Below, one piece after another: positions 5,068 to 63,528 of a DNA stretch of 64,000 nt; position 1 is the stretch's first letter, and every line of letters starts with the position of its first letter. The notes below the pieces were generated by a model. The model saw only the letters and a program-made list of their open reading frames with translations. It had not been told where the DNA came from and made no database searches. The translations under genes and the position numbers were made by a program. Source of the stretch: Anthoceros angustus (taxonomy: Eukaryota; Plantae; Anthocerotophyta); the NCBI GenBank assembly GCA_010909165.1, contig MU008162.1:1860001-1924000 (forward strand). The letters are read 5' to 3'.

Positions 5068-5142
5068 CATCTTGCATTGCCACATGTGAGCCATCTTACA
5101 TTGCCACATGTGAGCCATCTTGCATTGCCACATGTGAGCCAT
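5068..5142. repeat. 24-bp tandem repeat x3
   Basis: Unit catcttgcattgccacatgtgagc, three near-identical copies. Confidence 0.95.
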
Positions 5143-12058: not shown

Positions 12059-12140
12059 AAGGTACGAAGGTGATCAAAGAGATTCAAGGTACAAAGGTGA
12101 TCAAAGAGATTCAAGGTACGAAGGTGATCAAAGAGATTCA
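12059..12140. repeat. 27-bp tandem repeat x3
   Basis: Unit aaggtacgaaggtgatcaaagagattc. Confidence 0.95.
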
Positions 12141-31616: not shown

Positions 31617-32269
31617 GTATGGCAAGCGAGTTCTTTTATTTTAAGCTTACCGTCTTGTTTGCGGTTTGATCTTGCTATTCTAGCGGCCGGTGCAAAAGGT
31701 TGGTGATTGAGTATTGACCAGATTGCGCTACAAAAGAAGCGATGATCTAATAAGAATTGGGGATATCGAAACTGGACAAACGAAGCCATAATGTAATCAG
31801 AACTGGGGATGTCGAAACTGGATAGATGCTGGGCTGTCGGAATGCCGAGAACGTGCCTCTCCGGTGGCCACTCGGTGGATCATCCTCTTCCAGTTGCTGC
31901 AGGCCAATCCAAATCCATTGTAGAGACGCTCGGACGAGACTGTGGAGCTGCTGCTGCTCAATAGTTGAACCCACGTGCACCTCATCATCGATGTCGGCAG
32001 ATGCTACCAGAATCTGCCTCATTCTATTGGTCAGACTGCGGCTTGCGTCCCCGGACAGCGGCTTGCATCCCCTGGCCTGCCTGGACTGCGCTGATTGCCG
32101 GCATTCTCCTGACATTCCCTATATCAATTCGATACACGTGTTTTGGCAAAATTTTACAGGCTGTGCCCGGGCAAGCTGGAGGCTGATGTGGCGGATGCCC
32201 TCAATAATGGAGTCTGTAACACAAGTCTGTCTATATGGGAGCGGAAATCCACATCCTGGAGAGGCGTGA

Positions 32270-33033
32270 ATGACACAGGTCTTGGACGATGGGAAGTTAC
32301 TCGCCCTCGCCCAGGTTGCGGCTCTCACAATCCTCTTGGCTGCCATCGCTCGTAAGCAGGAGATGGAGAAGCTGAAACTCCTACGAATTTCAAACGCTCT
32401 TCACGTTGCTGCTGCTCAGTGCAGCAATGCAGAATTGGGAATGATGGGTTGCGGCTCCTGCAGGTGCAGACGCCGTAAGGCCCGCCATCTTCGTCTTCGG
32501 CGACTCGTACGGGGACACTGGGAATCGCAACCGGACGGACCCTCTGTTTAATCAGCCATGGCAGCAGCCGTACGGCATCGGCTGGCCTGGGCGCCCTGCC
32601 GGCCGCGCCTCCGACGGCAGGGTGTCCACGGATTTCTAGGTACGTCCTTCGCAGCTGCTTTCAATCAGGCAATGCAGTCACCGAGAATTCGATAGACCTC
32701 TTCATGAGTTTCATACCAATGTGCGTTAATATGTCCCAGCTCCTCTCATAACATCCGCCAAGATCAAGGCTTACCAGTCAATCGCCAGCAGCACTCCGGC
32801 CAGGAGCATCAAGCACGGCGTCAATTTCGCTGTGGGCGGCTCGGGAACGTTCCCCTTCCTCTCGCTCACCTCGCTGTCCGGGCAGGTGGAGCAGCTGGAA
32901 GGCGTCCTCACCAAGTACCAAGGCCTGTATTCCCCGCCCGAGTCTGTGGTGATCTGGATGAGTGGAAACGACTACGGCTTCCTGCGATTAACAAACCCTA
33001 ATGCCACTCGAGCAGTGAGGCCTTCACACATCC
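32270..33033 (+). pseudogene. Truncated GDSL copy 1 (exons 1-3)
   Basis: Signal-peptide exon, FVFGDSYGDTGN exon and GVNFAVGGSG exon, then a jump into PPR-derived sequence. Confidence 0.85.
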
Positions 33034-33121
33034 TTTCAGCACAGTATACAAGAGGGATTGAGAAACATGATAGTCTGTCTATGTATATGGGAGCGGAAAT
33101 CCACATCCTGGAGAGGCGTGA

Positions 33122-35005
33122 ATGACACAGGTCTTGGACGATGGGAAGTTACTCGCCCTCGCCCAGGTTGCGGCTCTCACAATCCTCTTGGCTGCCATCG
33201 CTCGTAAGCAGGAGATGGAGAAGCTGAAACTCCTACGAATTTCAAACGCTCTTCACGTTGCTGCTGCTCAGTGCAGCAATGCAGAATTGGGAATGGGTTG
33301 CGGCTCCTGCAGGCCAATCCAAATCCATTGTAGAGACGCTCGGACGAGACTGTGGAGCTGCTGCTGCTCAATAGTTGAACCCACGTGCACCTCATCATCG
33401 ATGTCGGCAGATGCTACCAGAATCTGCCTCATTCTATTGGTCAGACTGCGGCTTGCGTCCCCGGACAGCGGCTTGCATCCCCTGGCCTGCCTGGACTGCG
33501 CTGATTGCCGGCATTCTCCTGACATTCCCTATATCAATTCGATACACGTGTTTTGGCAAAATTTTACAGGCTGTGCCCGGGCAAGCTGGAGGCTGATGTG
33601 GCGGATGCCCTCAATAATGGAGTCTGTAACACAAGTCTGTCTATATGGGAGCGGAAATCCACATCCTGGAGAGGCGTGAATGACACAGGTCTTGGACGAT
33701 GGGAAGTTACTCGCCCTCGCCCAGGTTGCGGCTCTCACAATCCTCTTGGCTGCCATCGCTCGTAAGCAGGAGATGGAGAAGCTGAAACTCCTACGAATTT
33801 CAAACGCTCTTCACGTTGCTGCTGCTCAGTGCAGCAATGCAGAATTGGGAATGATGGGTTGCGGCTCCTGCAGGTGCAGACGCCGTAAGGCCCGCCATCT
33901 TCGTCTTCGGCGACTCGTACGGGGACACTGGGAATCGCAACCGGACGGACCCTCTGTTTAATCAGCCATGGCAGCAGCCGTACGGCATCGGCTGGCCTGG
34001 GCGCCCTGCCGGCCGCGCCTCCGACGGCAGGGTGTCCACGGATTTCTAGGTACGTCCTTCGCAGCTGCTTTCAATCAGGCAATGCAGTCACCGAGAATTC
34101 GATAGACCTCTTCATGAGTTTCATACCAATGTGCGTTAATATGTCCCAGCTCCTCTCATAACATCCGCCAAGATCATTCCGCATGTTCCAGTTGCTGCAG
34201 GCCAATCCAAATCCATTGTAGAGACGCTCGGACGAGACTGTGGAGCTGCTGCTGCTCCAATAGTTGAACCCACGTGCACCTCATCATCGATGTCGGCAGA
34301 TGCTACCAGAATCTGCCTCATTCTATTGGTCAGACTGCGGCTTGCGTCCCCCGGACAGCGGCTTGCATCCCCTGGCCTGCCTGGACTGCGCTGATTGCCG
34401 GCATTCTCCTGACATTCCCTATATCAATTCGATACGTGTTTTGGCAAAATTTTACAGGCTGTGCCGGGCAAGCTGGAGGCTGATGTGGCGGATGCCCTCA
34501 ATAATGGAGTCTGTAACACAAGTCTGTCTATGTATATGGGAGCGGAAATCCACATCCTGGAGAGGCGTGAATGACACAGGTCTTGGACGATGGGAAGTTA
34601 CTCGCCCTCGCCCAGGTTGCGGCTCTCACAATCCTCTTGGCTGCCATCGCTCGTAAGCAGGAGATGGAGAAGCTGAAACTCCTACGAATTTCAAACGCTC
34701 TTCACGTTGCTGCTGCTCAGTGCAGCAATGCAGAATTGGGAATGGGTTGCGGCTCCTGCAGGTGCAGACGCCGTAAGGCCCGCCATCTTCGTCTTCGGCG
34801 ACTCGTACGGGGACACTGGGAATCGCAACCGGACGGACCCTCTGTTTAATCAGCCATGGCAGCAGCCGTACGGCATCGGCTGGCCTGGGCGCCCTGCCGG
34901 CCGCGCCTCCGACGGCAGGGTGTCCACGGATTTCTAGGTACGTCCTTCGCAGCTGCTTTCAATCAGGCAATGCAGTCACCGAGAATTCGATAGACCTCTT
35001 CATGA
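33122..35005 (+). pseudogene. Further truncated GDSL 5' copies (33122-33313, 33680-34176, 34571-35005)
   Basis: Near-identical repeats of exon 1, exon 2 and intron sequence, each ending at a microhomology junction. Confidence 0.85.
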
Positions 35006-35886
35006 ACTGCACATGGTGCACACCTAGCTGCACAGCAGTGCGCAGGATACAGTCTGTTGGCTATCTCCTTCACTTGCGTTGATATAACCTCCTGGTTGAG
35101 ATCCTATGTCAATTTGTTGCTCTGCATGGAAGTTGGATAAATGTGCAACATTCTGCTCGTTGAGGTTGGACAACACATGCAGGCAATCTAGGATCTCAAT
35201 CTTGCTCTTTGGCAGCCAGAGATGCAGATGTTCAGTGTGGAATGGAGGGCCCCTTCATAATCGGAGCTATGATGCATCCAGTGATCTAACTTCTGGCCCT
35301 GAGCACCTAGATCAAATTGAAAGATTACTCCACCTCCAGACGAGCGAGGTTATGCCCCAAATCATACGAGGGCAACCTCAAGTGTGCGGTCCTTCTTCGA
35401 TCTTAAAGCGATGCTATGTTATGGACTCTCGGATAACCAATAAGTAGGAGCCTTTCGGTTGATAACCCTCAATCCCAAATTCTCAAGGCAAATCTCAGAT
35501 TGAGCCGATTGAACTTGTTCGTGACATCTGAGTCATGTCGGAAGCCATGTGGCTTAGGCCAAAACGGACACACATTTATAAGAACGCCGTGATTAAGCAT
35601 CCTGAGCTTAGATCGGTACTTAGATGGGGTGCCTAAAGGAGTGGATGCCCTTGGTGCAAGTAGCTTAGGCACACCTTGGTACAAGTTGTTAGTACCAAGT
35701 CCCATGACGGAAATCCGTCTTAGTGGACTAAAATAAAATTCTTCTTCATCTTCTTCATGTGTCAGTTGAGGGACTTCAAAAATTCATCATCTTCATGTGT
35801 CAGTTGAGGCAGTGGAAGATGATGGCGAAATTCACCGTGTACATGTGACAAAAATACAACTTTTTGTCCTCTTTTATGGACATCTC

Positions 35887-35960
35887 GTCTGGGTGGTGTA
35901 GTTGGTCATCACGCTAGTCTCACACACTAGAGGTCCCCAGTTCGAACCCAGGCTCAGACA
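35887..35960 (+). tRNA. tRNA-Val(CAC) duplicate with two T-stem mismatches (possible pseudogene or assembly error)
   Basis: Identical to 31543-31616 except ccccggttcgaacccggg -> ccccagttcgaacccagg. Confidence 0.7.
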
Positions 35961-36636
35961 GTATGGCAAGCGAGTTCTTTTATTTTAAGCTTACCGTCTT
36001 GTTTGCGGTTTGATCTTGCTATTCTAGCGGCCGGTGCAAAGGTTGGTGATTGAGTATTGACCAGATTGCGCTACAAAGAAGCGATGATCTAATAAGAATT
36101 GGGGATATCGAAACTGGACAAACGAAGCCATAATGTAATCAGAACTGGGGATGTCGAAACTGGATAGATGCTGGGCTGTCGGAATGCCGAGAACGTGCCT
36201 CTCCGGTGGCCACTCGGTGGATCATCCTCTTCCAGTTGCTGCAGGCCAATCCAAATCCATTGTAGAGACGCTCGGACGAGACTGTGGAGCTGCTGCTGCT
36301 CCAATAGTTGAACCCACGTGCACCTCATCATCGATGTCGGCAGATGCTACCAGAATCTGCCTCATTCTATTGGTCAGACTGCGGCTTGCGTCCCCCGGAC
36401 AGCGGCTTGCATCCCCTGGCCTGCCTGGACTGCGCTGATTGCCGGCATTCTCCTGACATTCCCTATATCAATTCGATACACGTGTTTTGGCAAAATTTTA
36501 CAGGCTGTGCCCGGGCAAGCTGGAGGCTGATGTGGCGGATGCCCTCAATAATGGAGTCTGTAACACAAGTCTGTCTATGTATATGGGAGCGGAAATCCAC
36601 ATCCTGGAGAGGCGTGAATGACACAGGTCTTGGACG

Positions 36637-38698
36637 ATGGGGAAGTTACTCGCCCTCGCCCAGGTTGCGGCTCTCACAATCCTCTTGGCTGCCATCGCTC
36701 GTAAGCAGGAGATGGAGAAGCTGAAACTCCTACGAATTTCAAACGCTCTTCACGTTGCTGCTGCTCAGTGCAGCAATGCAGAATTGGGAATGATGGGTTG
36801 CGGCTCCTGCAGGTGCAGACGCCGTAAGGCCCGCCATCTTCGTCTTCGGCGACTCGTACGGGGACACTGGGAATCGCAACCGGACGGACCCTCTGTTTAA
36901 TCAGCCATGGCAGCAGCCGTACGGCATCGGCTGGCCTGGGCGCCCTGCCGGCCGCGCCTCCGACGGCAGGGTGTCCACGGATTTCTAGGTACGTCCTTCG
37001 CAGCTGCTTTCAATCAGGCAATGCAGTCACCGAGAATTCGATAGACCTCTTCATGAGTTTCATACCAATGTGCGTTAATATGTCCCAGCTCCTCTCATAA
37101 CATCCGCCAAGATCAAGGCTTACCAGTCAATCGCCAGCAGCACTCCGGCCAGGAGCATCAAGCACGGCGTCAATTTCGCTGTGGGCGGCTCGGGAACGTT
37201 CCCCTTCCTCTCGCTCACCTCGCTGTCCGGGCAGGTGGAGCAGCTGGAAGGCGTCCTCACCAAGTACCAAGGCCTGTATTCCCCGCCCGAGTCTGTGGTG
37301 GTGATCTGGATGAGTGGAAACGACTACGGCTTCCTGCGATTAACAAACCCTAATGCCACTCGAGCAGTGAGGCCTTCACACATCCCTTGCGAAGCCTGAT
37401 CAATCAGATTTGTGTGCAGAATCCATTCGTATTCCATTCACCCGCTGCTCCTGGCCATGGGTGCAGGACTTTCTAGCCCGAGCAGACGAGATCGTTTCAC
37501 GGATCGGACAAAGCGTGCGGAAGCTGTACACTCTCGGATTCCGCAACGTCGCTCTGGCCAACCTAGAACCTTTCGGATGCCTACCGATGATCACCAACCG
37601 GAACAATGACACGGATTGCGATACCAGACAGGGGTTCCTCGTGGATTACCATAACGACAAGCTGGCTCTTGAGATTGCGGATTTGCAGGCGTCCCTGCCT
37701 GGCCTGCGCTGGTTAGAGCTCAACCTCAACAAGGCCTTCTACGTCGTTATCCGTAACCCATCTCTGTTCGGTAAGCTCCGTTCTCGGTTCCACCACATTT
37801 ACAGTGAGTGAAAATGGTTTGACGGTCGCGGCCCTGCCGTGGGGACGGGAGGACTCAGTCTCGAATCCCGCATCTGATGCCCGTTCTCGGACTTACATAT
37901 AGAAACGCTCCTGCTGCAGGTTTCAAGCACGGCGTGGGAAGCTGCTGCAGAGGCCTTCCCCCGGGCGTGTTCTGCGGGGACGTGGACGAGCAGGGCAACC
38001 CGCTCTACACCGTCTGCCCTAACCGCCATGAGTATTTCTTCTGGGACAGCTACCACCCGTCCAACGACGGCTGGGCTGCGTTGAGCAGTCTCTTTTACTA
38101 CGGCTTCAACTTCACCATCGGCGCTCCGAACCTGCTCTTCTGGCTCAATTCCGCCAACTTGGGCAAGCACAGCCACAGCCACGGCCACAGCCACGGGCTC
38201 GGGCGTAGCGGCAGTCTCTCCACTGCAGCAGCGTCCGCCCTTGCGATCGAAGCCCTAAGCAAGTCCGGGTACCTCAGTCCCAGCGAGCTGGCCGCGATCA
38301 ACAGCACGCTGGCCAGGGTCCCCTCCACCATCTTTGCCGATTTGGGGCCGGTGACGGTTTTCCTCCCGGCGCTGGATGGAGCGGCAGTGCAGCAGCTGAA
38401 ATCGGTGGTGTCGCGGGCTCCGGAGCTGGCATCGGAGGTGGCCCTGCAGCAGGTTGTGAATGGAGTGTGGCCGGCGCCGAGGCTGCTGGAGCTGGCTGTC
38501 GGGGGCGGGCATCACTTGACCACTCTGGCGGGGGGCTCGGTTACCGTGACTGTGCGGAGTGGAACCCTTTTTCTGAGACCGGGAGGGGAGGATGCGGAGG
38601 TGTCGGTGGTCAGGCCCTCACTGGTTTCCACCGAGAATGTGGTGGTGCACGGAACTAGCGCCTTGCTTCTTCACCATGACTTCGATCCTCATGTTTGA
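36637..38698 (+). CDS. Secreted GDSL esterase/lipase fused to a C-terminal fasciclin (FAS1) domain; 5 exons (36637-36700, 36813-36988, ~37089-37366, 37467-37770, 37920-38698); apparent 1-bp deletion at the end of exon 2
   Basis: Signal peptide MGKLLALAQVAALTILLAAIA, FGDSYGDTG, GRASDGR, GVNFAVGGSG, GNDY, FFWDSYHP. Then VTVFLP...LTTLAGGSVTV...VVHGTSALLL (FAS1 H1/H2-like). Confidence 0.8.
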
Positions 38699-40481: not shown

Positions 40482-43400
40482 CATGATTGTTCAAATATTT
40501 CTTCTAAGACAATGATTATCAACTCCATTCGAACTGCGCCCACTGGGCTGCACTCACCAATGCTCCCAACCTGCACTCTTGGCTCTCAAGCAAAAAAAAA
40601 TACGGACTAACATATGGCTACCTAATATCACGTTTATGATCATGTACTAAAAAATGTATTATATGGAGATCAATATTTCATGTTACATACCGATTTTCTC
40701 CTGAGTGACAATGTTGGGCAAGGGCTACAAGTTCACTGAGTCCACCTACGCACAAGCTACTCCTGTAGGCAACGTCAAACCCGCGCATGGTATAGCTATG
40801 ACAGTTGTTGTGCATACTAGATTAAGCGGGAACTGGGGCATACACAAAGCAAAAATACATTCATACCACAATCATTAGTTGTTTAACCTCCAACTCAAGT
40901 CACACGGCTAGAAAGCATACATAGAACGATGAACCAATGTTAGGTAGAGTCAGGCTGTGAATGTAAACAAAGCACTTCAAGCATAGCCAGCTTCAAGCTA
41001 CGGCATAGATAGCTTTGCTGGGCCTGTCTCTTCTGTAGGTAGAAATGCTTTTCTGCTTCGTTTGCGATCAAAAGCGGGAAGTGAAGAGTGCCCGAGAGAG
41101 CCGAGTCCCACTCGCATCATGGCACGACAAGACATACACACAATTGGAGCTGTCATGCCGTGTGATACTAATCTGGATTTAGTGTTTGATTAGCATTAAT
41201 TAATCTAATTACTTATCTTTAAGTAAGTAATTAATGTTAATTAATCTAAAGTGCTTATGTTAATTAAGCGTTGATTAGTGTTAATTAAACATGGTTAGCA
41301 ATAGCTAAGTGGATAAGCTATTCCTTGCATATTATAGTGTATTCTTAGGATATTTAGGCGCCACGCCACAGGTGATCTTAGGAATACCGACGCCAAGGCT
41401 AGTATAGACCCTTCCATTGAGGACAGCTCAGTCATAGCTTATCCTCTAGATATGCAATGCAAGGCGTTGTGAGGAGGCCAAAGCTATGACTCAGAGCGAT
41501 GTGAGGAATTTGCGTGTTGTTCTGGTGGGAGAGTGTGTTTGTGCCACGATTCGCGAGCTACTCCCTCCTATTGTTACAAGCTATGATCTCGTGTGTGTAC
41601 GCTAAATAGGCGTGCTAGGATTGATAGGCCGTGTTAGGCTTAGTGTGCTACGCGATGCTAGGCGATGCTGGGCCGTGCTGGGCAATGTGGGCGTGCTGGG
41701 TGATGCTGGGCTTGGTGTGCTGGGCGTGCTGGGCGTGCTAATGCGCTAGGCAATGCTAGGTGATGCTGGGCAGGTGTGCTGGGCGTGCTGGGCTATGGGC
41801 CATCGCTGGCGTTGCTAGGTGATGCTAGGCTTAGTGTGCTGGGCGTGCTGGGCGTGCTGAGGCTTAATCGCTAGGCAAGTGGGTGATGCTGGGCTTAGTG
41901 TGCTGGCGGCGCCAGGGCCGTGCTAGGCTTAACGCTGGGCAATGCTAGTGATGCCAGGCTTAGTGTGCTAGGCGTGCTAGCCGCGCTGGGCTTAATGCGC
42001 TGAGCGATGCTAGGTGATGCTAGGCTTAGTGTGCGGCTACGCCAGTGCCAGCTTAATGCACCAGGCGATGCCAGGTGATGCTAGGCTTAGTGTGGGTATG
42101 CTGGGCGTTTAACGCGCTGGCGATGCTAGGTGATGGGCGATGCCAGGCGACAGTAATGCTTGCACGCCAGTGCGCCAGGTGAGTGCCAGGCTTTTGGCGC
42201 ACAGGGCGTGCTAGGCTTAGCTTGTGCTGGTTGCCAGTGTGCGAGCTGCGCACAGGCTTAATGCAGGGCTGCCAGGTGATGCCAGGCAGTGTGCCAGCGC
42301 GCTAAATGCGTGCCAGGCCAGCGCCAGCCTAGGTGACGCCAGGCGTGCCAGGCGAAATGCGCCAGGGCCTAACGCGCCAGGCTGCCAGGTGATGCCAGGC
42401 TGGTGTGCCAGGCTGCTAGGCGTGCTGGGCTTAGCGATGCCAGGGTGATGCCAGGCTTAGTGTGCTGGGCGATGCCAGGCGGCTGGCTTAACGCGCCAGC
42501 GTGCCAGGTGATGCTAGGCTTAGTGTGCAGTGCTGTGCTAGGCTTAATGCGCGCCAGGCAGGTGATGCGCTTGGTGCCAGGCTGCGTGCTAGGCAATGCT
42601 GGCCGCCAGGGTGACGCTAGGCTAGTGCGCATGATTGTTCAAATATTTCTTCTAAGACAATGATTATCAACTCCATTCGATAGCCTTTGAGCACTCACTA
42701 ATGCTCCCAACTGCACTCTTGGCTCTCAAGCAAAAAAATACGGACTAACATATGGCTACCTAATATCACGTTTATGATCATGTACTAAAAATGTATTATA
42801 TGGAGATCAATATTTTCATGTTACATACCGATTTTCTCCCTGAGTGACAATGTTGGGCAGGCTACAAGTTCAAGTCCACCTACGCACAAGCTACTCCACA
42901 TGAGCAGCTAAACCCAGCATGGTATAGCTATAGCGGTTGTTGTGCATACTAGATTAAAGGCGGGGCATACACAAAGCAAAATACATTCATACCACAATCA
43001 TTAGTTGTTTAACCTCCAACTCAAGTCACACATTAGAAAGCATACATAGAACGATGAACAATGTCAATGTTAGAGTGAATGTAAACAAAGCACTTCAAGC
43101 ATAGCGACAGCACGACAGATAGCTTTCTGGGCCTGTCTTCTGTAGGTAGAAATGCTGCTCGCTTTGCGATCAAAAGCGGGAAGTGAAGAGTGCCCGAGAG
43201 CCGAGTCCCTCGCGTCACGGCACGACAAGACATACACACAATTGAGTCATGCCGTGTGATACTAATCTGGATTTAGTGTTTGATTAGCATTAATTAATCT
43301 AATTACTTATCTTTAAGTAAGTAATTAATGTTAATTAATCTAAAGTGCTATATTAATTAAGCGTTGATTAGTGTTAATTAAACATGGTTAGCAATAGCTA

Positions 43401-43745
43401 AGTGGATAAGCTCTATTGCATATTATAGTGTATTCTTAGGGATATTTCCCAGATATCACGCCAATAGGTGATCTTAGGAATATCTTGCGAGGCGCTAGTA
43501 TATATAGACCATTGAGGAAGCTCGTCAGTCTATATCAGATATGCAATGCAAGGGCGTTGTGAGGAGGCCAAAGCTATGACTCCGAGAGCGATGTGTGAGG
43601 AATTTGCGTGTTGTTCTCGTGGGGAGAGTGTGTTTGTGCCACGATTCGCGAGCTACTCCCTCCTATTGTTACAAGCTATGATCTCGTGTGTGTACGCTAA
43701 ATAGGCGTGCTAGGATTGATAGGCCGTGTTAGGCTTAGTGTGCTA
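40482..43745. repeat. ~2.15-kb tandem duplication covering flank, LTR start and part of the satellite
   Basis: catgattgttcaaatatt... starts at both 40482 and 42630. The second copy has many small indels. Confidence 0.85.
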
Positions 43746-46700
43746 CGCGATGCTAGGCGATGCTAGGCCGTGCTAGGCTTAATGTGCGAGGCGATGCTAG
43801 GTGATGCTAGGCTTAGTGTGCTAGGCGATGCTAGGCCGTGCTAGGCTTAATGCGCTAGGCAATGCTAGGTGATGCTAGGCTTAGTGTGCTAGGGGCGTGC
43901 TAGCCATGCTAGGCAACGCTGGGCGTTTGCTAGTGATGCTGGGCTTAGTGTGCTAGGCGTGCTAGGCCGTGCTGGAATGCGCCTGGGCAATGCTAGGATG
44001 CTAGGCTTAGTGTGCTGGCGATGCTAGGCGTGCGGCTTAATGCGCCTGGGCGTGCTGGGTGATGCAGGCTTCAGCGCGTGCTGGGCCGTTACTGGGCGCC
44101 AATGCGCTAGCGTGCTAGGTGATGCTAGGCTTAGTGTGCTGGCGTGCTAGGCCGCTGGGCTTAACTTGCGTGCTGGGTGATGCCAGGCAGTGTGCTGGGC
44201 GTCTTGGGCGTGCTAGGCTTAATCACGGCTGCGTGCTGGGTGATGCTGGGCGTGTGCTGGCGTGCTGGGCCGTGCTGGGCTTAATGCGCTAGGCGATGCC
44301 TAGGTGATGCTGGGCTTGGTGTGCCTAGCTGGGCATGGGCCGTGCTAGGCTTAATCGCTGGCTAGGTGATGCTAGGCTTAGTGCATGGGCGATGCTAGGC
44401 GTGCTAGGCTTAATGCGCTGGGCGTGCTGGGTGATGCTAGGCTTGGTGTGCTGGGCGATGCCAGGGCCGTGCTAGGCTTCGCGCGGCTGGGGTGATGCTG
44501 GGCTTGGTGTGCTGGCGTGCTGGTAGCTTTGAATGCAGGGCGTGCTAGGTGATGCTAGGCAGTGTGCTGGGCGGCTGGGGCGTGCTGGGCTTAATCGCTG
44601 GGCGTGCTGGGTGATGCTGGGCTTGATGTGCTGGGCGGTGCTGGGCCAGTGCTAGGCAGCTGGGCGTTAGCTGGGGTGCTGGGCTGGGGCGTGCTGGGGT
44701 GCTGGGCTTAATCGTGGGCGTGCTGGGGTGCTGAGCGGTGTGCTGGCGTGCTGGGCACGTGCTGGGCCAATGCGGCTGGCGTGCTGGTGATGCTAGGCAA
44801 CTGGGCGTGCTGGCGTGCTGGGCAATGGCTGGGTGCGGTGATGGGCTTGGTGTGCTGGGCCGTGCTGGGCCTGCTGGGCAATCGCTGCCAGTGCTAGGTG
44901 ATGCTGGGCTTGGTGTGCGTGCTAGGCCGGCTAGAAGCAATGCGCTAGGGGCTGGGGTGCTGGTGCTACGCCAGTGTGCTGGCGTCTTCAGGCGTGCTGG
45001 GCTGTCGCTAGGCGATGCTGGGTGATGCTGAGGTGTGCTAGTGCTGGCGTGCTAGGCTTAATCGCTGGCGTGCTAGGTGATGCTGAAGCAGTGTGCTGGG
45101 CGCTGGGCGTGCTGGGCAATGCTGGCGTGCTGGGTGATGCTGGGCTTGAGTGCAAGCGTGCTGAGCGTGCAAACAATGCGCAGGCGATGCTAGGTGATGC
45201 TGGGCTTGGTGTGCTAGGCGATGCTGGGCACAGCAATGCGGCGTGCTAGGTGATGCACGTGTGCTAGGCGTGCCAGGCCGCTAGGCTTAACGCGCCAGGC
45301 GTGCTGGGTGATGCTAGGCTTAGTGTGCTGGGCGATGCTGGGCCGTGCTTAACGCAATCGCTGGGCATGCTAGGTGATGCTAGGCTTGGTGCTGGCGTGC
45401 TAAGTAGTGCTGGCTTAATGCTAGGCGATGCTGGGTGATGCTGGGCAGTGTGCTGGGCGATGCTGGGCCGTGCTGGCTTAATCGCTAGGCGTGCAGGTGA
45501 TGCTAGGCTTGGTGTGCTGGCGTGCTCGTGCTGGCTTAATGCGCTGGGCGTGCTGGGGTGCTGGCTTAGTGTGCTGGGGCGTGCTGGCGTGCTAGGCAAT
45601 GCGTGGGCGTGCTGGGTGATGCTGGGCAGTGTGCTGGCTGCGGGTGCTAGGCAATCGCTGGGCGTGCTGGGTGATGCTGGCTTGGTGTGCTGGCGTGCTG
45701 GGCCGTGCTGGGCAATGCGCTAGGCGTGCTGGGTGATGCTGGCTTAGGTGTGCTGGCGTGCTGGCCGTGCTAGGCTTAATCGCTGGGCGTGCTGGGGTGC
45801 TGGCTTAGTGTGCTGGCGTGCTGGCGTGCTGGCTTGCTAGGCGATGCGTGATGCTGGCTTAGTGTGCTGGGCGATGCTGGGCCGTGCTGGCTTAATGCGC
45901 TGGGCGTGCTGGGTGATGCTGGCTTAGTGTGCTGAAGATGCTGGGCCAGTGCTGGCTTAACGCTAGGCGATGCTGGGTGATGCTGGCTTGGTGCTGCGTG
46001 CTGTGCTAGGCTTAATCGCCCAGGCGTGCTGGGTGATGCTGAGCAGTGTGCTGGCGTGCTGGCGTGCTGGGCTTAATCGCTGGGCGATGCTGGTGATGCT
46101 GAGGCTTGGTGTGCTGGGCTGCTGGCGTGCTCAGGCAATGCGCTGGGCATGCTAGGTGATGCTAGGCTTGGTGCTGGCGTGCTAAGTAGTGCTGGGCTTA
46201 ATGCTAGGCGATGCTGGGTGATGCTGGGCAGTGTGCTGGGCGATGCTGGGCCGTGCTGGGCTTAATCGCTAGGCGTGCAGGTGATGCTAGGCTTGGTGTG
46301 CTGGCGTGCTCGTGCTGGGCTTAATGCGCTGGGCGTGCTGGGTGCTGGGCTTAGTGTGCTGGGCGTGCTGGCGTGCTAGGCAATGCGTGGGCGTGCTGGG
46401 TGATGCTGGGCAGTGTGCTGGGCTGCGGGTGCTAGGCAATCGCTGGGCGTGCTGGGTGATGCTGGGCTTGGTGTGCTGGCGTGCTGGGCCGTGCTGGGCA
46501 ATGCGCTAGGCGTGCTGGGTGATGCTGGGCTTAGGTGTGCTGGCGTGCTGGCCGTGCTAGGCTTAATCGCTGGGCGTGCTGGGTGCTGGGCTTAGTGTGC
46601 TGGCGTGCTGGCGTGCTGGCTTGCTAGGCGATGCGTGATGCTGGGCTTAGTGTGCTGGGCGATGCTGGGCCGTGCTGGGCTTAATGCGCTGGGCGTGCTG

Positions 46701-47620
46701 GGTGATGCTGGGCTTAGTGTGCTGAAGATGCTGGGCCAGTGCTGGGCTTAACGCTAGGCGATGCTGGGTGATGCTGGGCTTGGTGCTGCGTGCTGTGCTA
46801 GGCTTAATCGCCCAGGCGTGCTGGGTGATGCTGAGCAGTGTGCTGGCGTGCTGGCGTGCTGGGCTTAATCGCTGGGCGATGCTGGTGATGCTGAGGCTTG
46901 GTGTGCTGGGCTGCTGGCGTGCTCAGGCAATGCGCTGGGCGTGCTGGGTGATGCTGGGCTTAGTGCTGGCGTGCTGGGGTGCTAGGCTTAATCGCTTGCT
47001 GGTGATGCTGGGCAGTGTGCTGCGGGCTTTTGGCGTGCGCTGGGCTTAATCACGTGCGTGCTGGGTGATGCTAGGCTTGGTGTGCTGCGTGCTGGCGTGC
47101 TTCATGCGCTAGGCGTGCTGGGTGATGCTGGGCTTAGTGTGCAGGCGTGCTGGGCTGCTAATGCGCTGGGCGATGCTGGGTGATGCTGGGCTTAGTGTGC
47201 TGGCGTCTTGGGCCGCTGGGCTTAATCGCTGGGCGTGCTGGGTGATGGGCTTAGTGTGCTGGGCGATGCTGGCGTGCTGGGCTTAACGCTAGGCGATGCT
47301 AGGTGATGCTGGGCTTGGTGTGCTGGCGTGCTAGGCGTGCTGGGCAACGCTGGCGCTGGGTGATGCTAGGCAGTGTGCTGCGATGCTAGCCGTCTGGGCT
47401 TAATGCTGGCGTGCTAGGTGATGCTGGCTTAGTGTGCTGGCGTGCTAGTGCTGGGCAATGCTGGCGTGCTGGGTGATGCTAGGCAGTGTGCTGCGTCAGG
47501 CGCAATGAGCGTGCTAGGTGATGCTGGCTTGTGCCAGCGATGCTGGCCGTGCTAAGCTGGCGAGGTGATGCTAGGCTTAGTATGCAGGCGATGCTGGGGG
47601 CTAGGCGAGGCGATGCTAGC
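41611..47620. repeat. G-rich satellite, ~4.9 kb in two blocks (41611-42629, 43705-47620); ~68-bp unit built from 10/10/14-bp GCTAGG-initiated subunits
   Basis: Cleanest at 43750-43890: gctaggcgat gctaggtgat gctaggcttagtgt gctaggcgat gctaggccgt gctaggcttaatgc. Confidence 0.92.
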
Positions 47621-47729
47621 TCATTAAGCAAGGAGCAAGGGACTCTCTAAAGTGCCAGGCAGGCCTAGGGAGGGGCCCAAGGCCAAAGGAGAGGCCCAAG
47701 TCCCAAGGCTTAAGGCCTAGAAAGGGGAC

Positions 47730-47850
47730 CAAGTCCAAGGTCAAGGAGAGGAGGGGAAGAAGCCCAAGGCCAAGGCCAAGGAGAGGAGGCGAAGAAGCCC
47801 AAGTCCAAGGCCAAGGAGAGGAGGCGAAGAAGCCCAAGTCCAAGGCCAAG
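47730..47850. repeat. ~35-bp tandem repeat x3 in the retroelement leader
   Basis: Unit approximately ccaaggccaaggagaggaggcgaagaagcccaagt. Confidence 0.8.
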
Positions 47851-49739
47851 CAAGGAGAGGAATGAGGCTTCTACACGGGGGTTCGGATTTCAAGGGATAA
47901 GTGGATAAGCATGGATATGTCATCAGTCCATTTGACTTTAGTTTCCTAAACCTTGATTGGCACCCCATCCAGGTACTGATCCAACCCGCGGGTGCTTCAC
48001 TTTGGAGTTTGTTGTACTGCACGTAGACTAAAGAGTATTTATATGCAATAGAGACATGATAGAGGTTTCACTAATCACGATCTAATTAAGCGGGGTGTGT
48101 TAACCTTGATTAAGGGTTTTTGACCTAATCACTAACCGCCTGGAGTGCATGCCTGGAAACACTCGATCCGGACGGAGCTACCAACCAGCAAGTCCATCGA
48201 GGCGGTCGAAGTCCCGACCAGAGAGAAGTGCGAACACTCGATTTTGGTACCGGGGAAGGAGGAACCCAATGACCAATCAACAATCTTTGAAGGATCTATG
48301 GTGGCAACACACAAGACACGTTAGTCTTTCGGGACAACTCGGTGGGCGGCGAGGAGGACTTGTCTTTGGAGTCGTCAAGATGGGAGGAGAAGGATCGAAT
48401 GGAGTTGTTCAGGACGAGCGGCACCTTGCCACCGGAGGACTTCATCGAAATGCAGTGCGGTGTGCGGAGATGGAATTGAAGACCGGATACACGAGCGATA
48501 CGGCTTCATCCAAATGCCAAGTACTTGGGGATGAAGCATTGGCGTGCTATCGCGAGCACAAGGCGAGGTTGTTGAGCGCACATCCGGAGGACCATGAGTA
48601 GCAGTTCAAGCTCAAGGAACCGGTGCGACGGGCGGTGGCACCGTACGATCCCATCAAGAGATGTTTGACATCTTCCTGGAGTTTCGCAAGCACGGATGAG
48701 AAGATCTCGGTGACACACTTCAAGATGAAGTCGGTGAGGCTAGATGGCTTATCAAGAATCGACCAGCTTGGTACGTGACACCAAGATCATGAGTGACCGA
48801 TGGCTGCAGAGAAGTACTTGCAGCATTGCCATATGCGCGCATGAAGGTGCAACAAGCGGTGCACAAGACGGCAACACTACACCTCAAGGAAGTGTACGAG
48901 ATGGTCGACAAGATAGGGCCCGCTGACACTTTCTCTCGTGGCACAAAGTGAGTGGTGGACCCAGACAAGTGGAGGAGTGGACAACATGACGACGCGTGAG
49001 GTGCCGAGGGAGGATTTCCTGAGGAGCAACTCACCACACAGGAGTCAAGGGAGCACTCAAGTTATCGAAAGCAACCCCGCCAATGCATCCGCCAACCTCA
49101 TCCACAAAATCGGAAGAGCAAAGGCGCCGGAGGAGGCACCGAAGTCCGTGGACAAAAGAAACGGAAGCATCAAAGAAGACGATGGATGTACGTGGCACGC
49201 CTTGCAAAGCTGGAGAAGTTGGTGCGAAGGCGAAGATCAAGGAGAGCGGCAGTTCATCATCGAGGACGAAGAAGATGAGCACAAGCTTGATACATGGCGA
49301 TCGTGACCGATCCAAGGGCAGGAAGAAACCTCCGCAGCTACGAGAGAAGATAGCTCAGAGGAAGAAGAGGATGTCTTGACACCTGCAGCGGAAGACACGG
49401 AAGGAAGCTTCGGGATCCTCTTCCCGAACCTATGCCAAGATGCCAAAGTCGTTTGAGCCATTGCCAATAGGAGCAAATGTGGGAGCAACATCAAAGTCCA
49501 GAGTGGGCAATGTGGAGAAACCCATGCGCAGACTGTTGACAGAGACGATGGCACAAAAGCTTCTGGAGATGCCATGTTTCAACCTACAAGACATGGGGCT
49601 GAGCGAAAAGGAAGTTAGGGGTTTGACTCGGTGGATGTTAACAACTCTTGAAGATGAAGCAAGTGTCGACGATGTGCCACAACAGGTGGCAATGATGTCA
49701 TTCGACCTCGAGCCAAGCATCTCGTGGAGAAGCGAATGT

Positions 49740-50170
49740 CGCACGAGTGGGGGTGGCTTTGGTCAACAATCGGGAGAGACACATTGAAATCAATGGATTC
49801 GCACCAAGGAGGGTGTTGATTGACACCGAGCAGCCGGTGATCGCTGGAAGAAGAGTGAAGGAAGCGTTGGGTCTCCACCAAGAAAGGTTGAAGGAAACCA
49901 AGTGGAAGATCCGGACCTGGGACCACGGAGCATGTGTTGGGGTGACAAGGTACAAGTTGAAGGTTTCATTCAAACCAAGAATGCAGACTTCACCTTTGTC
50001 GAGGTACCTTTGGTCAATCAGACACTTTTGATGTCTTCTGAGCGGACGCTTTGTACAAACCTCGAGTCATGGTGGATTTGTGGACGGAGGTCTACTATCG
50101 ACAGCCGGAGAAGCCGGAGCAAAACCGATGAACGGATTGCCCGCATCCCTCTCGCAATGCATGGCAAGGA
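49740..50170 (+). pseudogene. Retropepsin-like aspartic protease remnant
   Basis: RVLIDT(G)xQPVIAGRR ... DVF(LG)ADALYK..VMVDLW, with frameshifts. Confidence 0.65.
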
Positions 50171-50499
50171 TCATGAGAACCTCATTGCCAGCAGCGTCTA
50201 CCCAATGTTTGGCGCCAGTGAAGGACACGCCATACGTGCTTGAACCTCTTGGCGTGTGTCTAACAACCGAATCGACTGATGGAGGATTTCACGAGGAGGA
50301 GGAAGACAAGCTAGGGTTGCAACCACCCTGAGGAGGTTCTTCAAGTCACCGGACGGAGCTGGTGGCTGCAGCAATGAGCCGTGCAAAAGCTGTGGAGGAT
50401 GGTGCAAGAGGACCGTGTCCTATGAGCCGAGAACCGTAAGTTCTGCCTAGGGTTGAGCCTGTTTGTGACCTAAACACCTAGGTCATCACATGGCGACCT

Positions 50500-50945
50500 C
50501 GGGAAGACGGCATAGTGTTGGTGGCACTCTTTGGAGGCATCAGTACCGGCTTGGAAGCAGTGCTGAAGTGTGGCATCAAAGTACTAAGATACGTGCATTG
50601 CGACCCGGATCCAAATGCAAGGATTGTGTCACAGATCTGCGTAAGGGACTTGATGGGGGAGTACCTTAACCTCCTGATGTGGGAGTCAGTGAAGGGTTAC
50701 TAGAAGGCACTGCCGATGGATGTTCGCATGATAGGGTTGTCCCATTTGAGTTGTCTTGGGCAACCGGTGGACCTTATCATCGCAGGTTGGGCGTGTCAAG
50801 GACTATCCTCTGCAGACAAGGGTCAAGATCTGAAGGATCCACAAACAGCATTGTTCTATGACCTGATGAGGATCTTGCGCTTGATCTAGAAAGGGCAAGA
50901 AAGGCCTTGTGGATACATGTTGGAGAATGTGCCAGTATGCATGAG
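50500..50945 (+). pseudogene. C5-cytosine DNA methyltransferase domain (motifs I, IV, VI), truncated, inside the retroelement pol region
   Basis: One frame reads VLVALFGGISTGLEAVL...ALPMDV...VDLIIAGWACQGLS...LFYDLMRIL...YMLENVP, with TAG stops at 50700 and 50887. Confidence 0.85.
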
Positions 50946-50950
50946 CGTGA

Positions 50951-51348
50951 AGCTCAGATCATAGCTTGTCCTCTAGATATGCAATGCAAGGGTGTTGTGA
51001 GGAGGCCAAAGCTATGACTCCGAGAGCGATGTGTGAGGAATTTGCGTGAGGTGTGTTTGTGCACGGGAGCTAGAAGCCATGATCCTCGTCCAGTGCTAGC
51101 AGGGCCAGGCTTAGTTTGCGGCGATGTTAGGGCGCCGGCGATGCTAGGTGATGCAGCGACCCTAGGCGATGCTAGCATCGCCTAGGGTCGCCTAGGGTCG
51201 CTTAGCATCACCTAGCATCGCCTAGCGTCGCCTAGCATCGCCTAGCATCACGCTAAGCCTAGCACGGCCTATCTAGCGTACGCACACGAGATCATAGCTT
51301 GTAACAACAGGAGGGAGTAGCTCGCACGTCGTGACACAAACACACTCT
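50951..51348. repeat. Fold-back of LTR and satellite sequence around a perfect 36-bp palindrome (51156-51191)
   Basis: gcgaccctaggcgatgctagcatcgcctagggtcgc is its own reverse complement. The left arm matches 41420-41700 forward; the right arm matches 41530-41660 reversed. Confidence 0.85.
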
Positions 51349-51633
51349 CCCATGCCGACAGCTGAAGAGATCTTCGACACCATTGGGTCTGCCAAGTTCT
51401 TCTCAACATTGGACTTGAGGCATGTAGTTCCACTCGTACAAGCAATCTCTGCCCCAGAACGTCGTTTTCTTTTTGTCTTCTTCGGCAATCTCTACTTGGT
51501 GAAACCCTAGCCTCAAGTCCAATGTTGAGAAGAACTTGCCAGACCCAATGGTGTCGAAGATCTCTTCAGCTATCGGCATGGGATAGTGGTCATGTGGGAT
51601 TCGCTCATTCAACGGCCGATAGTCACCACACAT
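51349..51633 (-). pseudogene. Ty3/gypsy reverse transcriptase fragment with an inverted partial duplicate (51349-51420 is the reverse complement of 51511-51582)
   Basis: CGDYRPLNERIPHDHYPMPIAEEIFDTIGSGKFFSTLDLRLGFHQVEIAEEDKKKTTFWG. Confidence 0.9.
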
Positions 51634-51706
51634 TCTCCTCTCTGTCCAGAACGCTCAAAACCCAAATATCTTTATCACACACACATTCAACAATAATGAG
51701 AAAACG

Positions 51707-51833
51707 TCTTCTTATTCATAAACAAAAACATACCACCCTTTGCAAATTAAACATACACGTCCTTCTTATTCATAAGCAAAAACATATCACCCTTACGTAC
51801 ACGTATTCTTATTCATAGGCAAAAACATACCAC
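51707..51833. repeat. Degenerate 45-53 bp tandem repeat (insertion site of the MITE)
   Basis: ttcttattcataaacaaaaacataccaccctt x3; the third unit continues after the MITE. Confidence 0.75.
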
Positions 51834-55439: not shown

Positions 55440-55640
55440 AAAGAAGAAGAAGAATTTTATTTAAGTCCACTAAGGATGGATTTTCGTCATGGGACTTGGT
55501 ATCTAACAACTTGTACCATGGTGTGCCTAAGCTACTTGCACCAAGGGCATCCACTCCCTTTAGGCACCCCATTCTAAGTACCGATTTAAGCTCAGAATGC
55601 TTAAATCACGACGTTCTTATAAATGTCTGTCCATTTGGAC
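55440..55640 (-). mobile_element. Copy of the microsatellite-tailed dispersed element
   Basis: (aag)n tail followed by a near-colinear reverse complement of 31195-31400. Confidence 0.8.
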
Positions 55641-56243
55641 GTACATATCCTCCGTGCTGTGGCTAATAAGTGTGAGGCCGGTATAGGTGGCTTTCTTGTG
55701 ATGAAGGAGGCGGTTTGTGGCTCCGACGCTGGCCGCTAACCGGACACGGACCTGTCATGAGCCAGCTGGCGTCGGGTGGAAACTGGAGACCTCGATGAAG
55801 AGGAGTCAAAGAAGACAAGTGTGCATCGGAGCCTGGAAAGCGCGTAAAGACAGTCGACCGCTTAGCACTTCGACCCGTATGAATGAATGAATGCTTACGC
55901 CGCGTCCTAAAGATGGCTTCAAATGCGCGAAAGCGCTTGTGGAAATTTGTCGCTGTCACGTGAGATTGGAGCACGCAGTTGGCCATAGCTGTCGCCCGAG
56001 CTTGCTCTGATGCAATCGAGAAGACGCGCTGCTCGCTTTTCGGTGTCATCAGCCTGCGGGCGCAGGAGCAGTAGCAGGAGCAGGAGCAGGAGCGGTTGCA
56101 TGCTGCCAGGATCAGTCCGGATGCATGAGTTTCCAGCTCGGAGGGGCTGGCCGGACTATGTTTGTGAGAGCCGAGGTAAATCTGTCGGGATGTGCTGGTA
56201 ATTCTTGCTCGCTGAGATGGATTAGCACGCAAGGAGCTTTACG

Positions 56244-59048: not shown

Positions 59049-60019
59049 CTAATCGAACAAGCTGAAGCCCATGTCGTCCTCCGACTCTTCAGCGGGTTCC
59101 GCCTTTTCTTCCTCGTTGGCTGCTGCAGCAGCAGGTGCAGCAGCTGCTGATGTCTCCACCGGAGCGGCGGCCACCGCAAATTTGCTCGGATCCTTCAAGT
59201 ACTCCTTCACCTTCCCCGCCTGAGGGAATGAATAGCCTGTGTCAATGGCAATAGCCAACACGTTCTTGTAACTGTTGACGAAGAAGTGTGGTGCTGCCGC
59301 CAGTGTCGGGTAGTCCAGACCCAGAGAAAGTGCTGCCACTGTCGATATTCCAGCAGTGAGCTTGTCCATCAAGTCATCTTCTGTCAGATCCAACACCGCA
59401 GGATCGAACACCGACCCATTGTCGAAGATGCTCTGAACCACAAGCCCGTATGAGAAAGGACGGATTCCCAGCTTAGCCAACAATGCTGCCTCGGAAGACC
59501 CGACCTTGTCACCCTTCTTGATAAGCTCCACCGGGGCTATGATTTCCACAGTCCCCTTGTTAATCTTCGTGGGGATGTTGAGCACCTGGAAGAAGGAAGT
59601 CTGGGAGGGATCCAGCCCAGTGTTCCCCGGAGGAACCACCACATCAATGGGTGCCACAAGACCCACACGGGCAGGTGCTCCCACTTTGTACTTGGGTACT
59701 TGGCAACCTCTTCCCTCACCTCCTTCAGATCACCCTTGGTGAATATCAGCCCAACGTTACCCACCAGCAACGGTATCAGATTCAAGATAGCTTCGTTACC
59801 CATCTTCTCAGCGTGGATTCGAATGGTCCTCTTCATCATCGTGTTTTTCCCCATCAGCACCACGGACTCAGGCCTCAACCCCTTCCTAATGCCCTGCAAC
59901 TGATTGGACCCAACATTGTCGGCAAGACAAATCAGGACCTGATTGAACTCCTCCAACAGGTCGCACATCTTCCTGTCATACGCCTGTTTCTTCTCCTGCT
60001 TAGTACCTTTGAAACCCAT
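59049..60019 (-). pseudogene. RPP0: 60S acidic ribosomal protein P0 (uL10) paralog, frameshifted by an 8-bp duplication
   Basis: Near-identical to 62061-63023. gtacttgg is duplicated at 59688-59703, breaking the frame at AKY/KVG. Confidence 0.9.
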
Positions 60020-60442
60020 GGCTCCTTCCCGAGCTGCATCAGGTACCGCCAATTAGCTTCACCAACACCGCCAACAACAGGCGACATAGCACGACGACCA
60101 ACGACGTGACTACAACAAGGAAGCCACCCCAAGCTCAGTAAAATCCGGGAAAAGAACAGCAGAGCAAAATTCACCCTCGTACCACAGCAGGCAGGAGATA
60201 CTCTCAAAGAAACTAATTAACATGGAGAGCACGAAATCAATGAACTCCAAGGACCGCACCTGTTCAGAACGAACCCCCAAGCTCCGGCGAAGGAAAAACG
60301 CTCCGCTTCACAAACAAAGGAGAGAAGGATATACCCACACCCTGCGATCGACAACGAACCGGGGGCCAAGCCGACGCTGTCGGCATGGCGGGCAGACGTA
60401 CTACGTCGTGCTAGTTCGCTACGTCGTGCTGCGGCTTTCAAA

Positions 60443-62060: not shown

Positions 62061-63023
62061 CTAGTCGAACAGGCTGAAGCCCATGTCGTCGTCCGACTCT
62101 TCAGCGGGTTCCGCCTTTTCTTCCTCCTTGGCCGCTGCAGCAGCGGGTGCAGCAGCTGCTGGTGTCTCCACCGGAGCGGCGGCCACCACAAATTTGCTCG
62201 GGTCCTTCAAGTACTCCTTCACCTTCACCGCCTGAGGGAATGAGTAGCCTGTCTCAATGGCAATAGCCAACACGTTCTTGTAACTGTTGACGAAGAAGTG
62301 TGGTGCTGCCGCCAGTGTCGGGTAGTTCAGACCCAGAGAAAGTGCTGCCACTGTCGATATTCCGGCAGTGAGCTTGCTCATCAAGTCATCTTCTGTCAGA
62401 TCCAAGACTGCAGGATCGAACACCGACCCATTATCGTAGATGCTCTGAACCACGAGCCCGTATGAGAAAGGACGGATTCCCAATTTAGCCAACAAAGCAG
62501 CCTCAGAGGACCCGACCTTGTCACCCTTCTTGATAAGCTCCACCGGGGCTATGATTTCCACAGTTCCCTTGTTGATTTTCGTGGGAATGTTAAGCACCTG
62601 AAAGAAAGAAGTCTGGGAGGGATCCAGCCCAGTGTTCCCCGGAGGAACCACCACATCAATGGGTGCCACGAGACCCACACGGGCAGGTGCTCCCACCTTG
62701 TACTTGGCAACCTCCTCCCTCACCTCCTTCAGATCACCCTTGGTGAAGATCAGACCAACGTTACCCACCAGCAACGGTATCAAATTCAAGATAGCTTCAT
62801 TGCCCGTCTTCTCAGAGTGGATACGAATGGTCCTCTTCATCATCGTGTTTTTTCCCATCAACACCACAGACTCGGGCCTCAACCCCTTCCTGATGGCCTG
62901 CAACTGATTGGATCCAACATTGTCGGCGGCACAAATCAGGACCTGATTGAACTCCTCCAATAGGTCGCACATCTTCCTGTCATACGCCTGTTTCTTCTCC
63001 TGCTTGGTACCCTTGAAACCCAT
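62061..63023 (-). CDS. RPP0: 60S acidic ribosomal protein P0 (uL10), 320 aa, intronless CDS
   Basis: Complete ORF: [30 protein letters not shown]-terminal [14 protein letters not shown] 5'-UTR intron acceptor lies just upstream. Confidence 0.97.
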
Positions 63024-63528
63024 TGCTCCTGTAATGGAAGGTACTGAAAGTTAGCGTCATTGAGATTGTCGCGAAGAGAAACATAATTCTATCGTAATAG
63101 AATGACTGACACCGGTAAGTCCTCCTAACATGGGAACCGAAGGCTAAGAAGTACCTTCAAGAGTTCCCCTGTTTGCCAAATGGGTCTGCAGCGTGGCCTA
63201 GCTACAAAGCAAGCTAAAGATACTCGGAAGACATGGACTTCGGATGCTGAGCGAGAAATCAAAACAGTACCACACCTGGTTCGAAGGATCCCGAAAAACT
63301 CCGGCAAACAAACGCTCCGCTTCACCGACAAAGGATACAAGGATGATTTCCTCGAGCTACGAACTGCAAGAAACTGGGGGCCAAGTCGAGCCTGGTCGGA
63401 CAAGGCGGGCAGAGTGACTGCCACTTTAACCCCGATATACGAGATGCGCCGACAAGTGAAGAGCGCAAAGCCACAGCAAAGGAAGGACCTAACTCTTGGC
63501 TCCCTCGCCTATTTCAACAGCCAATATT

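Follow-up and report, generated by a model that had tools for sequence, protein, structure and literature searches.

A decayed Ty3/gypsy-type retrotransposon copy with a DNMT3-like methyltransferase domain in the hornwort Anthoceros angustus, and its relatives in green plants

Does a Ty3/gypsy retrotransposon of a land plant carry a C5-cytosine DNA methyltransferase as a regular part of its polyprotein, and what would such an enzyme do for the element? The question is raised by a locus of the hornwort Anthoceros angustus in a stretch of 64,000 nucleotides (contig MU008162.1 of assembly GCA_010909165.1, positions 1,860,001 to 1,924,000, forward strand), which is called the window below and whose positions are counted from its first letter. 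The original prediction, made from the letters alone, had described here the order gag, protease (PR), methyltransferase and reverse transcriptase (RT) and had proposed the locus as a candidate for an undescribed system. Quite probably, the region is a dead copy, truncated and with local inversion, of a Ty3/gypsy-type element in which a DNMT3-like domain lies between protease and RT and would likely methylate the element's own cDNA. The identity of the element can be given with high confidence; the self-methylation step has about even chances. With this copy the KnitGypsy-Dnmt3 kind gains a new member in land plants, and the kind as a whole is far more widespread than published.

The methyltransferase domain and its place in pol

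The coding remnants of the window copy are the following:

47620–49400, forward strand: leader with a 35-nt purine-rich tandem repeat (47729–47857; Tandem Repeats Finder, TRF), then a presumed gag remnant with many broken frames, covered by many variant contigs of run X1
49428–49655, forward strand: pre-protease region with weak likeness to the family polyprotein (tblastn E 0.002)
49696–49980, forward strand: aspartic protease remnant (RVLIDT) aligning to the proteases of related elements (tblastn E 4e-08), the Gly of D-T/S-G being missing in the window copy
50482–50952, forward strand: DNMT3-like C5-cytosine methyltransferase, motifs I–VI, two in-frame stops (Pfam, DNMT3A match and the related loci described below)
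51343–51421, forward strand: short RT piece (MPTAEEIFD...LDLR), in inverted repeat I5, 96% complementary to 51510–51588, and matching the RT of a related element (L081) at 71%
51418–51654, reverse strand: longer RT piece, inverted, of the group with DNMT before RT (Pfam RVT_1, tree)

Six-frame translation of 47500–51800 gave a methyltransferase frame that carries, as the original prediction had it, motif I (ALFGGI), motif IV with the catalytic Cys (AGWACQG) and motif VI (ENV). The frame contains two TAG stops and ends after motif VI, without motifs VIII–X, leaving the catalytic domain incomplete and the copy dead, as had also been said. With the stops read as X, the peptide does score as a Pfam DNA_methylase (30 bits, the cut-off being 22; E 4.6e-07), and among solved structures DNMT3A is its best match (E 6e-06; M.HhaI 0.05). 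It is 40–50% identical to the DNMTs of retroelements, and no relative found exceeds 50% identity to it. The protease and the methyltransferase are covered by a large number of variant X1 contigs, and at the second stop the window differs from contigs that account for 290 of 405 depth units. The same translation showed the protease-like stretch RRVLIDT at about 49750–49920 on the forward strand; a Pfam search with this remnant gave no match. The distance from protease to methyltransferase is 786 nt in the window, with a median of 759 nt in the family. The gag remnant is presumed from its position, and comparison with the relatives, in which RNase H (RH) and integrase (INT) are both present, found neither within the window, a truncation.

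Three homologues at 40–42% identity opened a metagenome scan that yielded 359 confirmed stretches. The best 80 of these are called peat-moss-type loci after Sphagnum magellanicum, a protein of which matches one of them at 93% identity across a quarter of the query. The window methyltransferase matches all 80. Of the 58 loci that have 2 kb or more of room, 55 show a match to the window RT piece downstream on the same strand (median 1587 nt); upstream of DNMT, the protease piece of the window matches in 47 of the 70 loci with room (median 759 nt). Locus L013 carries at 10343–12883 one stop-free frame of 847 amino acids with DNA_methylase, RVT_1 and RNase H, followed by an rve integrase and a PHD finger. 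Protease and DNMT share one frame in L077; the elements L081 and L082 have long frames free of stops; and DNMT motifs I–X are complete in L013, L081 and L082. The order in intact relatives is gag-PR-DNMT-RT-RH-INT-PHD. These loci demonstrate a fixed place of the domain in pol in the relatives and supply the further copies linking methyltransferase to pol that the original prediction had called for. At the DNA level only 39 nt around motif IV are common to the window and the peat-moss-type loci, and the window therefore represents a different lineage.

No longer homologue of the window peptide was found among 731 candidates searched with it, a blank that reflects a limit of sensitivity, because the same family was later found via intact relatives. 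Among viral contigs, 30 pattern matches included no relative. A prokaryotic origin was considered and rejected: two of the four matches in genome contigs (L081 and L082) are whole retroelements in bacterial metagenome-assembled genomes and are read as eukaryotic contamination, and L083 and L084 are matches of just 40–57 residues. The genomes that hold the L081 and L082 contigs are two GTDB representatives, in which these contigs are probably contaminants.

Purifying selection on the DNMT of the peat-moss-type relatives was demonstrated from the pattern of sequence variants in 65 distinct copies (78 loci before removal of near-duplicates), a variant being called shared if present in at least 3 copies. 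Without C>T and G>A changes, non-synonymous to synonymous counts in DNMT were 14/36 for shared and 228/81 for private variants (p 1e-09); with these changes, they were 196/119 and 266/107 (p 0.012). Elsewhere in pol the same test gave p 4e-05 for RT, a weak p 0.014 for the linker and no significance for RNase H (p 0.45). Median pairwise dN/dS was 0.41 for DNMT, 0.32 for RT and 0.48 for the linker, a weak test because dead copies dominate (the domain is stop-free in 1 of 65). A complete DNMT3 fold is predicted for the domain of the intact relative L013, with a model confidence (pLDDT) of 92.6 and all 31 Foldseek rows shown being DNMT3 (best E 1.4e-18, TM 0.72). All 21 aligned domains keep the catalytic Cys and the motif VI Glu, and the motif VIII Arg is nearly invariant. 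Against solved structures the intact relative matched DNMT3A (4e-09), M.HhaI (0.007) and DRM2 (0.018); the best phage match was at 24% identity (E 4e-09). Motifs I to X stand in plain order in the family.

Breadth of the family, terminal repeats and frame organisation

A search with the intact domain found 47 proteins, most of them nameless, with Marchantia polymorpha, Calypogeia fissa, Sphagnum, Closterium, Klebsormidium nitens, Chromochloris and Monoraphidium among the named sources. The Marchantia protein P0050 holds Gag, protease, DNMT and the start of RT, and the Closterium protein P0063 holds protease, DNMT, RT and RNase H. Two chlorophyte proteins have DNMT after RNase H and belong to a sister type with DNMT between RNase H and integrase. 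The M. polymorpha gene models Mp_8g17980, MARPO_0008s0049 and MARPO_0084s0073 (P0042, P0045 and P0050) are family polyproteins annotated as host genes. A score of E 1e-30 or better was reached by 248 clusters (50% identity) out of 1.84 billion representatives. Another Pol domain was present in 92 of the best 150 (RT/RNase H before DNMT in 69, DNMT before RT in 3, DNMT with integrase only in 20), and no other Pol domain in 58. The K. nitens protein KFL_000540020 (E 6e-29), too gapped for a tree, carries DNMT upstream of a stretch resembling what leads into RT in the family, and we infer that it is a copy of KnitGypsy-Dnmt3.

The trees built were unrooted and without host DNMT3 sequences. The type with DNMT after RNase H is a supported split (99/94) in a DNMT tree of 46 rows, with the window piece as a long branch on the opposite side. 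Among 63 proteins with both domains, six DNMT-before-RT members split off in both the DNMT and the RT tree (0.88 each), and both window pieces join these six (support 0.97 for the RT piece). The two trees co-vary: DNMT and RT distances are correlated (Mantel r 0.63, p 0.001, a value inflated by related sequences), and 11 of 24 well supported DNMT splits occur also in the RT tree. A single capture of DNMT3 appears likely from these trees.

The relatives also revealed a split arrangement of repeats. A 290-nt repeat, A, stands solo upstream in 31 of the 35 peat-moss-type loci with room, and the downstream pattern in 28 loci is B-A-B (14), B (8), B-A (4) or none (2). The elements end in TG...CA and have a purine run 5' of B1; no TGG primer site after A1 was seen in seven elements inspected. 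Of the 11 elements with both ends present, 8 are flanked by a perfect 4-bp target duplication; L007 and L015 sit at one common site, one with B-A-B and one with B, which makes 7 of 10 distinct sites. The repeat pairs of L053 and L060 were left out of the boundary calls, the L060 pair being a different repeat. The relatives are mobile in the manner of integrase-type elements. A tyrosine-recombinase element of the DIRS/Ngaro type was rejected, as the relatives have an rve integrase and 4-bp duplications. One idea was that the split repeats derive from a circle with two long terminal repeats (LTRs), opened at one or the other B-A junction; the simple form of it was rejected, as A-B-A is found upstream in 0 of 35 loci. 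The inner B1-A2 junction of six elements (L004, L007, L013, L052, L067 and L078) has CA and TG separated by two bases, which resembles joined integrase ends, and these six have a purine tract before B1 and no tRNA primer site after A1.

Frame organisation differs between two of the intact elements. In the circularly assembled L081, a TAG closes the gag-PR-DNMT frame; CAA TCA comes next, and RT-RH-INT-PHD continues in frame (L081:3469–3510). The sequence UAG-CARYYA is a read-through signal, which the context in L081 resembles; with such a leaky stop, DNMT would be made at Gag abundance. Nine proteins related to L081, of 571–1351 amino acids, end at the same place, in SATK, SATE or SATQ. L082 has at 3061–9519 a frame of 2152 amino acids with RT-RH-DNMT-INT-PHD-Tudor. 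Its C-terminal 239 residues gave no match in Pfam and PDB searches; by eye, LDPFGEG and IVTAPW in them are reminiscent of the amino-methyltransferase fold.

The rearranged window copy and its surroundings

The remaining features of the window copy are repeats and junctions:

40482–41620, forward strand: first copy of a 1.1-kb unit, 87.6% identical to 42630–43715 over 1156 columns with 43 gap openings; its 3' part (from about 41425) is terminal-repeat-like and leads into satellite
41620–42630, forward strand: short array of G-rich satellite (repeat families D1, D4 and D5; TRF periods 56–129)
42630–43715, forward strand: second copy of the 1.1-kb unit, with a TATA-like run about 40 nt upstream of the segment also present at 50975–51048
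43720–47619, forward strand: long indel-rich satellite array directly 5' of the coding remnant, LTR or 5' leader (TRF periods 62, 123 and 180)
50950–51047, forward strand: terminal-repeat-like piece fused to the methyltransferase via a 3-nt overlap (similarity, X1 contigs)
51048–51352, unstranded: fold-back, with a deletion-rich forward copy of repeat and satellite (51048 to about 51175), then a cleaner inverted arm

The piece joined to the methyltransferase at 50950–50952 is 92–99% identical to 41425–41516 and 43537–43610, the sequence preceding the upstream satellite arrays. In run X1, 11 contigs exit the window sequence after 50952 and 13 enter it at 50950, so that methyltransferase and repeat piece are normally apart and meet here in a 3-base overlap. 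The 11 exiting contigs continue with other sequence, and the break at 50952 is therefore particular to the window copy. A deletion or a faulty strand transfer may have fused the methyltransferase, after motif VI, into the interior of the terminal repeat. The terminal-repeat-like piece has the top summed X1 depth of the stretch (3200–5700), which fits a terminal repeat and is not a copy number. Another run, X2, tentatively taken for RNA, has 7 contigs, which are uninformative on expression.

In three X1 contigs, 51047 is joined to 51351 on the opposite strand, as is normal for the repeat. The short forward RT piece of 79 nt and the longer reverse piece make up another inverted repeat, the second here. 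Long-read data are known to produce artefacts in which a noisy arm lies next to a clean, inverted one, so that the two fold-backs may be either artefacts or genuine. The longer RT piece matches Pfam RVT_1 with E 4.5e-06 and 27 bits, below the cut-off of 29.6, and is 54–64% identical to the RTs of the family, the closest being Closterium proteins (64%). The repeat sequence of the window is unrelated to the repeats of the relatives, and the window does not define where the element begins and ends.

Upstream of the coding remnant, at 40482–47619, the 1.1-kb unit and the satellite occur twice in tandem, and the long satellite array shows a further internal duplication about 783 nt apart. A noisy long-read consensus is possibly behind the differences in this region.

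The neighbouring genes, at 9693–63050, seem intronless, which is unusual for a land plant. They include two ribosomal P0 genes, a LigB dioxygenase, GHL10, fasciclin, Myb/SANT and a seven-transmembrane RGS1-like gene in several frames. The window also encodes a 1497-aa double PLS-type pentatricopeptide repeat protein with E and E+ motifs, which points to a land-plant host. A search of Rfam gave no match, and six window proteins had no exact counterpart among the protein sequences searched. The tandem P0 genes (59049–60052 and 62061–63050) are 93% identical, and an 8-base gap shifts the frame of the first. A 775-aa frame on the reverse strand (20753–23080) has a GHL10 glycosyl hydrolase domain (E 5e-33); this family is mostly known from bacteria, and the frame is possibly an old gene transfer. 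A short dispersed repeat, 85–97% alike and in both orientations, occurs at 6385–6658, 31203–31369, 35555–35692 and 55475–55643 and is perhaps a small non-autonomous element. Segmental tandem duplications at 31730–36940 comprise 300-nt blocks, 99–100% identical, 1410 and about 2940 nt apart.

Known systems, rival readings and significance

Standard plant Ty3/gypsy elements (chromoviruses, Athila/Tat, Phygy and Selgy) have the order gag-PR-RT-RH-INT, a polypurine tract, TG...CA ends and a target duplication. The relatives of the window copy share this domain order, the purine tract, the ends and the duplication, and differ in adding DNMT, a PHD finger after the integrase and split repeats with the purine tract before B1, and in having no TGG site (seven elements). 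Host plant DNMT3 and DRM genes share the DNMT3-type catalytic domain, but lie outside Pol, and the motif order of DRM is rearranged, unlike the plain order of the family.

De Mendoza et al. (2018; PMC5890265) have reported KnitGypsy-Dnmt3 from K. nitens, a Gypsy element with integrase and an intronless, non-rearranged Dnmt3-like domain in Pol under purifying selection; as far as its available text goes, the capture is treated as particular to the K. nitens lineage. The legend of their Fig. 1 gives A-coding-B-A-B as the DIRS layout, and that of their Fig. 4 has KnitGypsy-Dnmt3 sharing it. KnitGypsy-Dnmt3 and the present family are alike in the intronless Dnmt3-like domain in a Gypsy polyprotein and in the A-coding-B-A-B repeats of the relatives of the window copy; the comparison covers the text and legends of that paper. 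The two are unlike in that the window host is a land plant, the window domain stays at or below 50% identity to every relative found, and the relatives here, with two domain orders among them, come from mosses, liverworts, Closterium and chlorophytes. Because DNMT type, Pol position and the relatives' repeat layout match KnitGypsy-Dnmt3, the suggestion of an undescribed system has to be given up. SymbioDIRS-Dnmt3 and SymbioLINE-Dnmt of Symbiodinium are likewise retrotransposon-borne cytosine methyltransferases, and the Pol of SymbioDIRS-Dnmt3 includes a Dnmt3 domain; this element occurs in two domain orders and with A-coding-B-A-B repeats (PMC5890265). They differ in having a tyrosine recombinase or LINE endonuclease in place of the DDE integrase, an unrelated RT and a dinoflagellate host.

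Yaari et al. (2019; PMC6453930) have described de novo CG and CHH methylation by the moss PpDNMT3b, and DNMT3 is described there as lost in angiosperms. The streptophyte and dinoflagellate cases are repeated in PMC12344493. The available text of PMC12344493, PMC10952607, PMC6453930 and PMC11982613 holds no report of land-plant or chlorophyte elements, and no other primary report of such elements was found in the literature, in which subscription papers were thinly covered.

In the proposed mechanism, DNMT would be packaged with Gag-Pol, the protease of the element would release it inside the particle, the enzyme would methylate the cDNA or the insertion site with host S-adenosylmethionine, and the new copy would land already marked. 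A packaged domain and methylation of cDNA or target were proposed for the algal elements in the Discussion of PMC5890265. Several results weigh against this reading of the locus. Methyltransferase and RT are not contiguous in the window, a terminal-repeat piece and two fold-backs lying between them and the main RT piece being inverted, and the X1 contigs are too short to span from one to the other. A profile from 12 family Gag regions gave no significant match on 47860–49400. Of the predicted order, protease followed by methyltransferase on the same strand holds, but a continuous RT and a significant gag do not. Summed X1 depth, which is not copy number, is about 100–300 on RT against mostly 300–2500 on the methyltransferase and fits an RT-poor family. 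Just 13 of 60 splits are common to the DNMT and RT trees, and the dN/dS of DNMT is barely under that of the linker. The residue before the catalytic Cys is Ala in place of Pro in the window, and GWECQ (65) stands beside GWPCQ (40) in the best 150 matches. Finally, the Klebsormidium domain gave no methylation in yeast, nor did DNMT3B, a result that the authors call inconclusive; only the Symbiodinium DIRS domains were shown to methylate CG there (PMC5890265).

The yeast result leaves room for the same element with a DNMT that does not methylate cDNA and would instead serve to bind nucleic acid, to modify RNA or RNA:DNA hybrids by methylation, or to draw off host methyltransferases as a decoy. 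Methylation of RNA is among the other roles that the authors of PMC5890265 themselves raised, and the frequent Glu-Cys in place of Pro-Cys would suit a non-catalytic domain. This is rather unlikely, as the active-site Cys, Glu and Arg are kept across domains just 33–47% identical, a full DNMT3 fold is predicted and the related SymbioDIRS-Dnmt3 domains methylate CG (PMC5890265). Improbable, to a further degree, is that the abundant family of the host is a non-autonomous gag-PR-DNMT derivative and that the RT pieces came from a sister copy, joined by rearrangement. The lower depth on RT, where one main contig lies, the inverted position of the longer RT piece, reached only via the repeat fold-back, and the L081 sub-lineage, in which DNMT closes a separate Gag-side frame, all speak for such a derivative; yet both window pieces fall in the same group of two trees, the break at 50952 is copy-specific by the 11 departing X1 contigs, and contig depth sums are unreliable.

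Junctions at 50950–51654 look chimeric and the region is indel-rich, as expected if a host DNMT3 retrocopy or fragment had landed by chance in a decayed gypsy element or if the assembly were chimeric. The spacing of protease and methyltransferase fits the family, however, the window piece scores far lower against animal DNMT3 than against retroelement DNMTs, and many variant X1 contigs run over protease and methyltransferase. Chance insertion or chimera is largely refuted by the linkage of DNMT and RT in the loci and by the single frame of L013, and is left with a very small probability.

The reading of a Ty3/gypsy copy with its own DNMT3-like domain can be extended to a wider scenario, which is tentative and somewhat short of even. 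An ancient DNMT3 capture before the chlorophyte/streptophyte split may have given rise to a pan-green Ty3/gypsy clade of hundreds of families, with an active de novo methyltransferase, a PHD-bearing integrase and split repeats. Within Pol the domain would later have changed place, to lie ahead of RT in streptophytes and between RNase H and integrase in chlorophytes; it would have reached Gag level via a leaky stop in a moss-type sub-lineage, and pre-methylated copies would arise in bryophytes including Marchantia.

The window copy itself is a fossil that adds one more distant lineage. The Gypsy form was known from one alga only in 2018, as far as the available text of that paper extends, and here it is a large, old clade reaching land plants. 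Counts of DNMT3 genes in plants may include transposon copies, and the long stop-free L081 and L082 are natural domains to assay. The 2018 paper, in its available text, left open what a retrotransposon gains from carrying the class of enzyme that silences it; because copies sit in M. polymorpha gene models, this question becomes testable in a genetic model.

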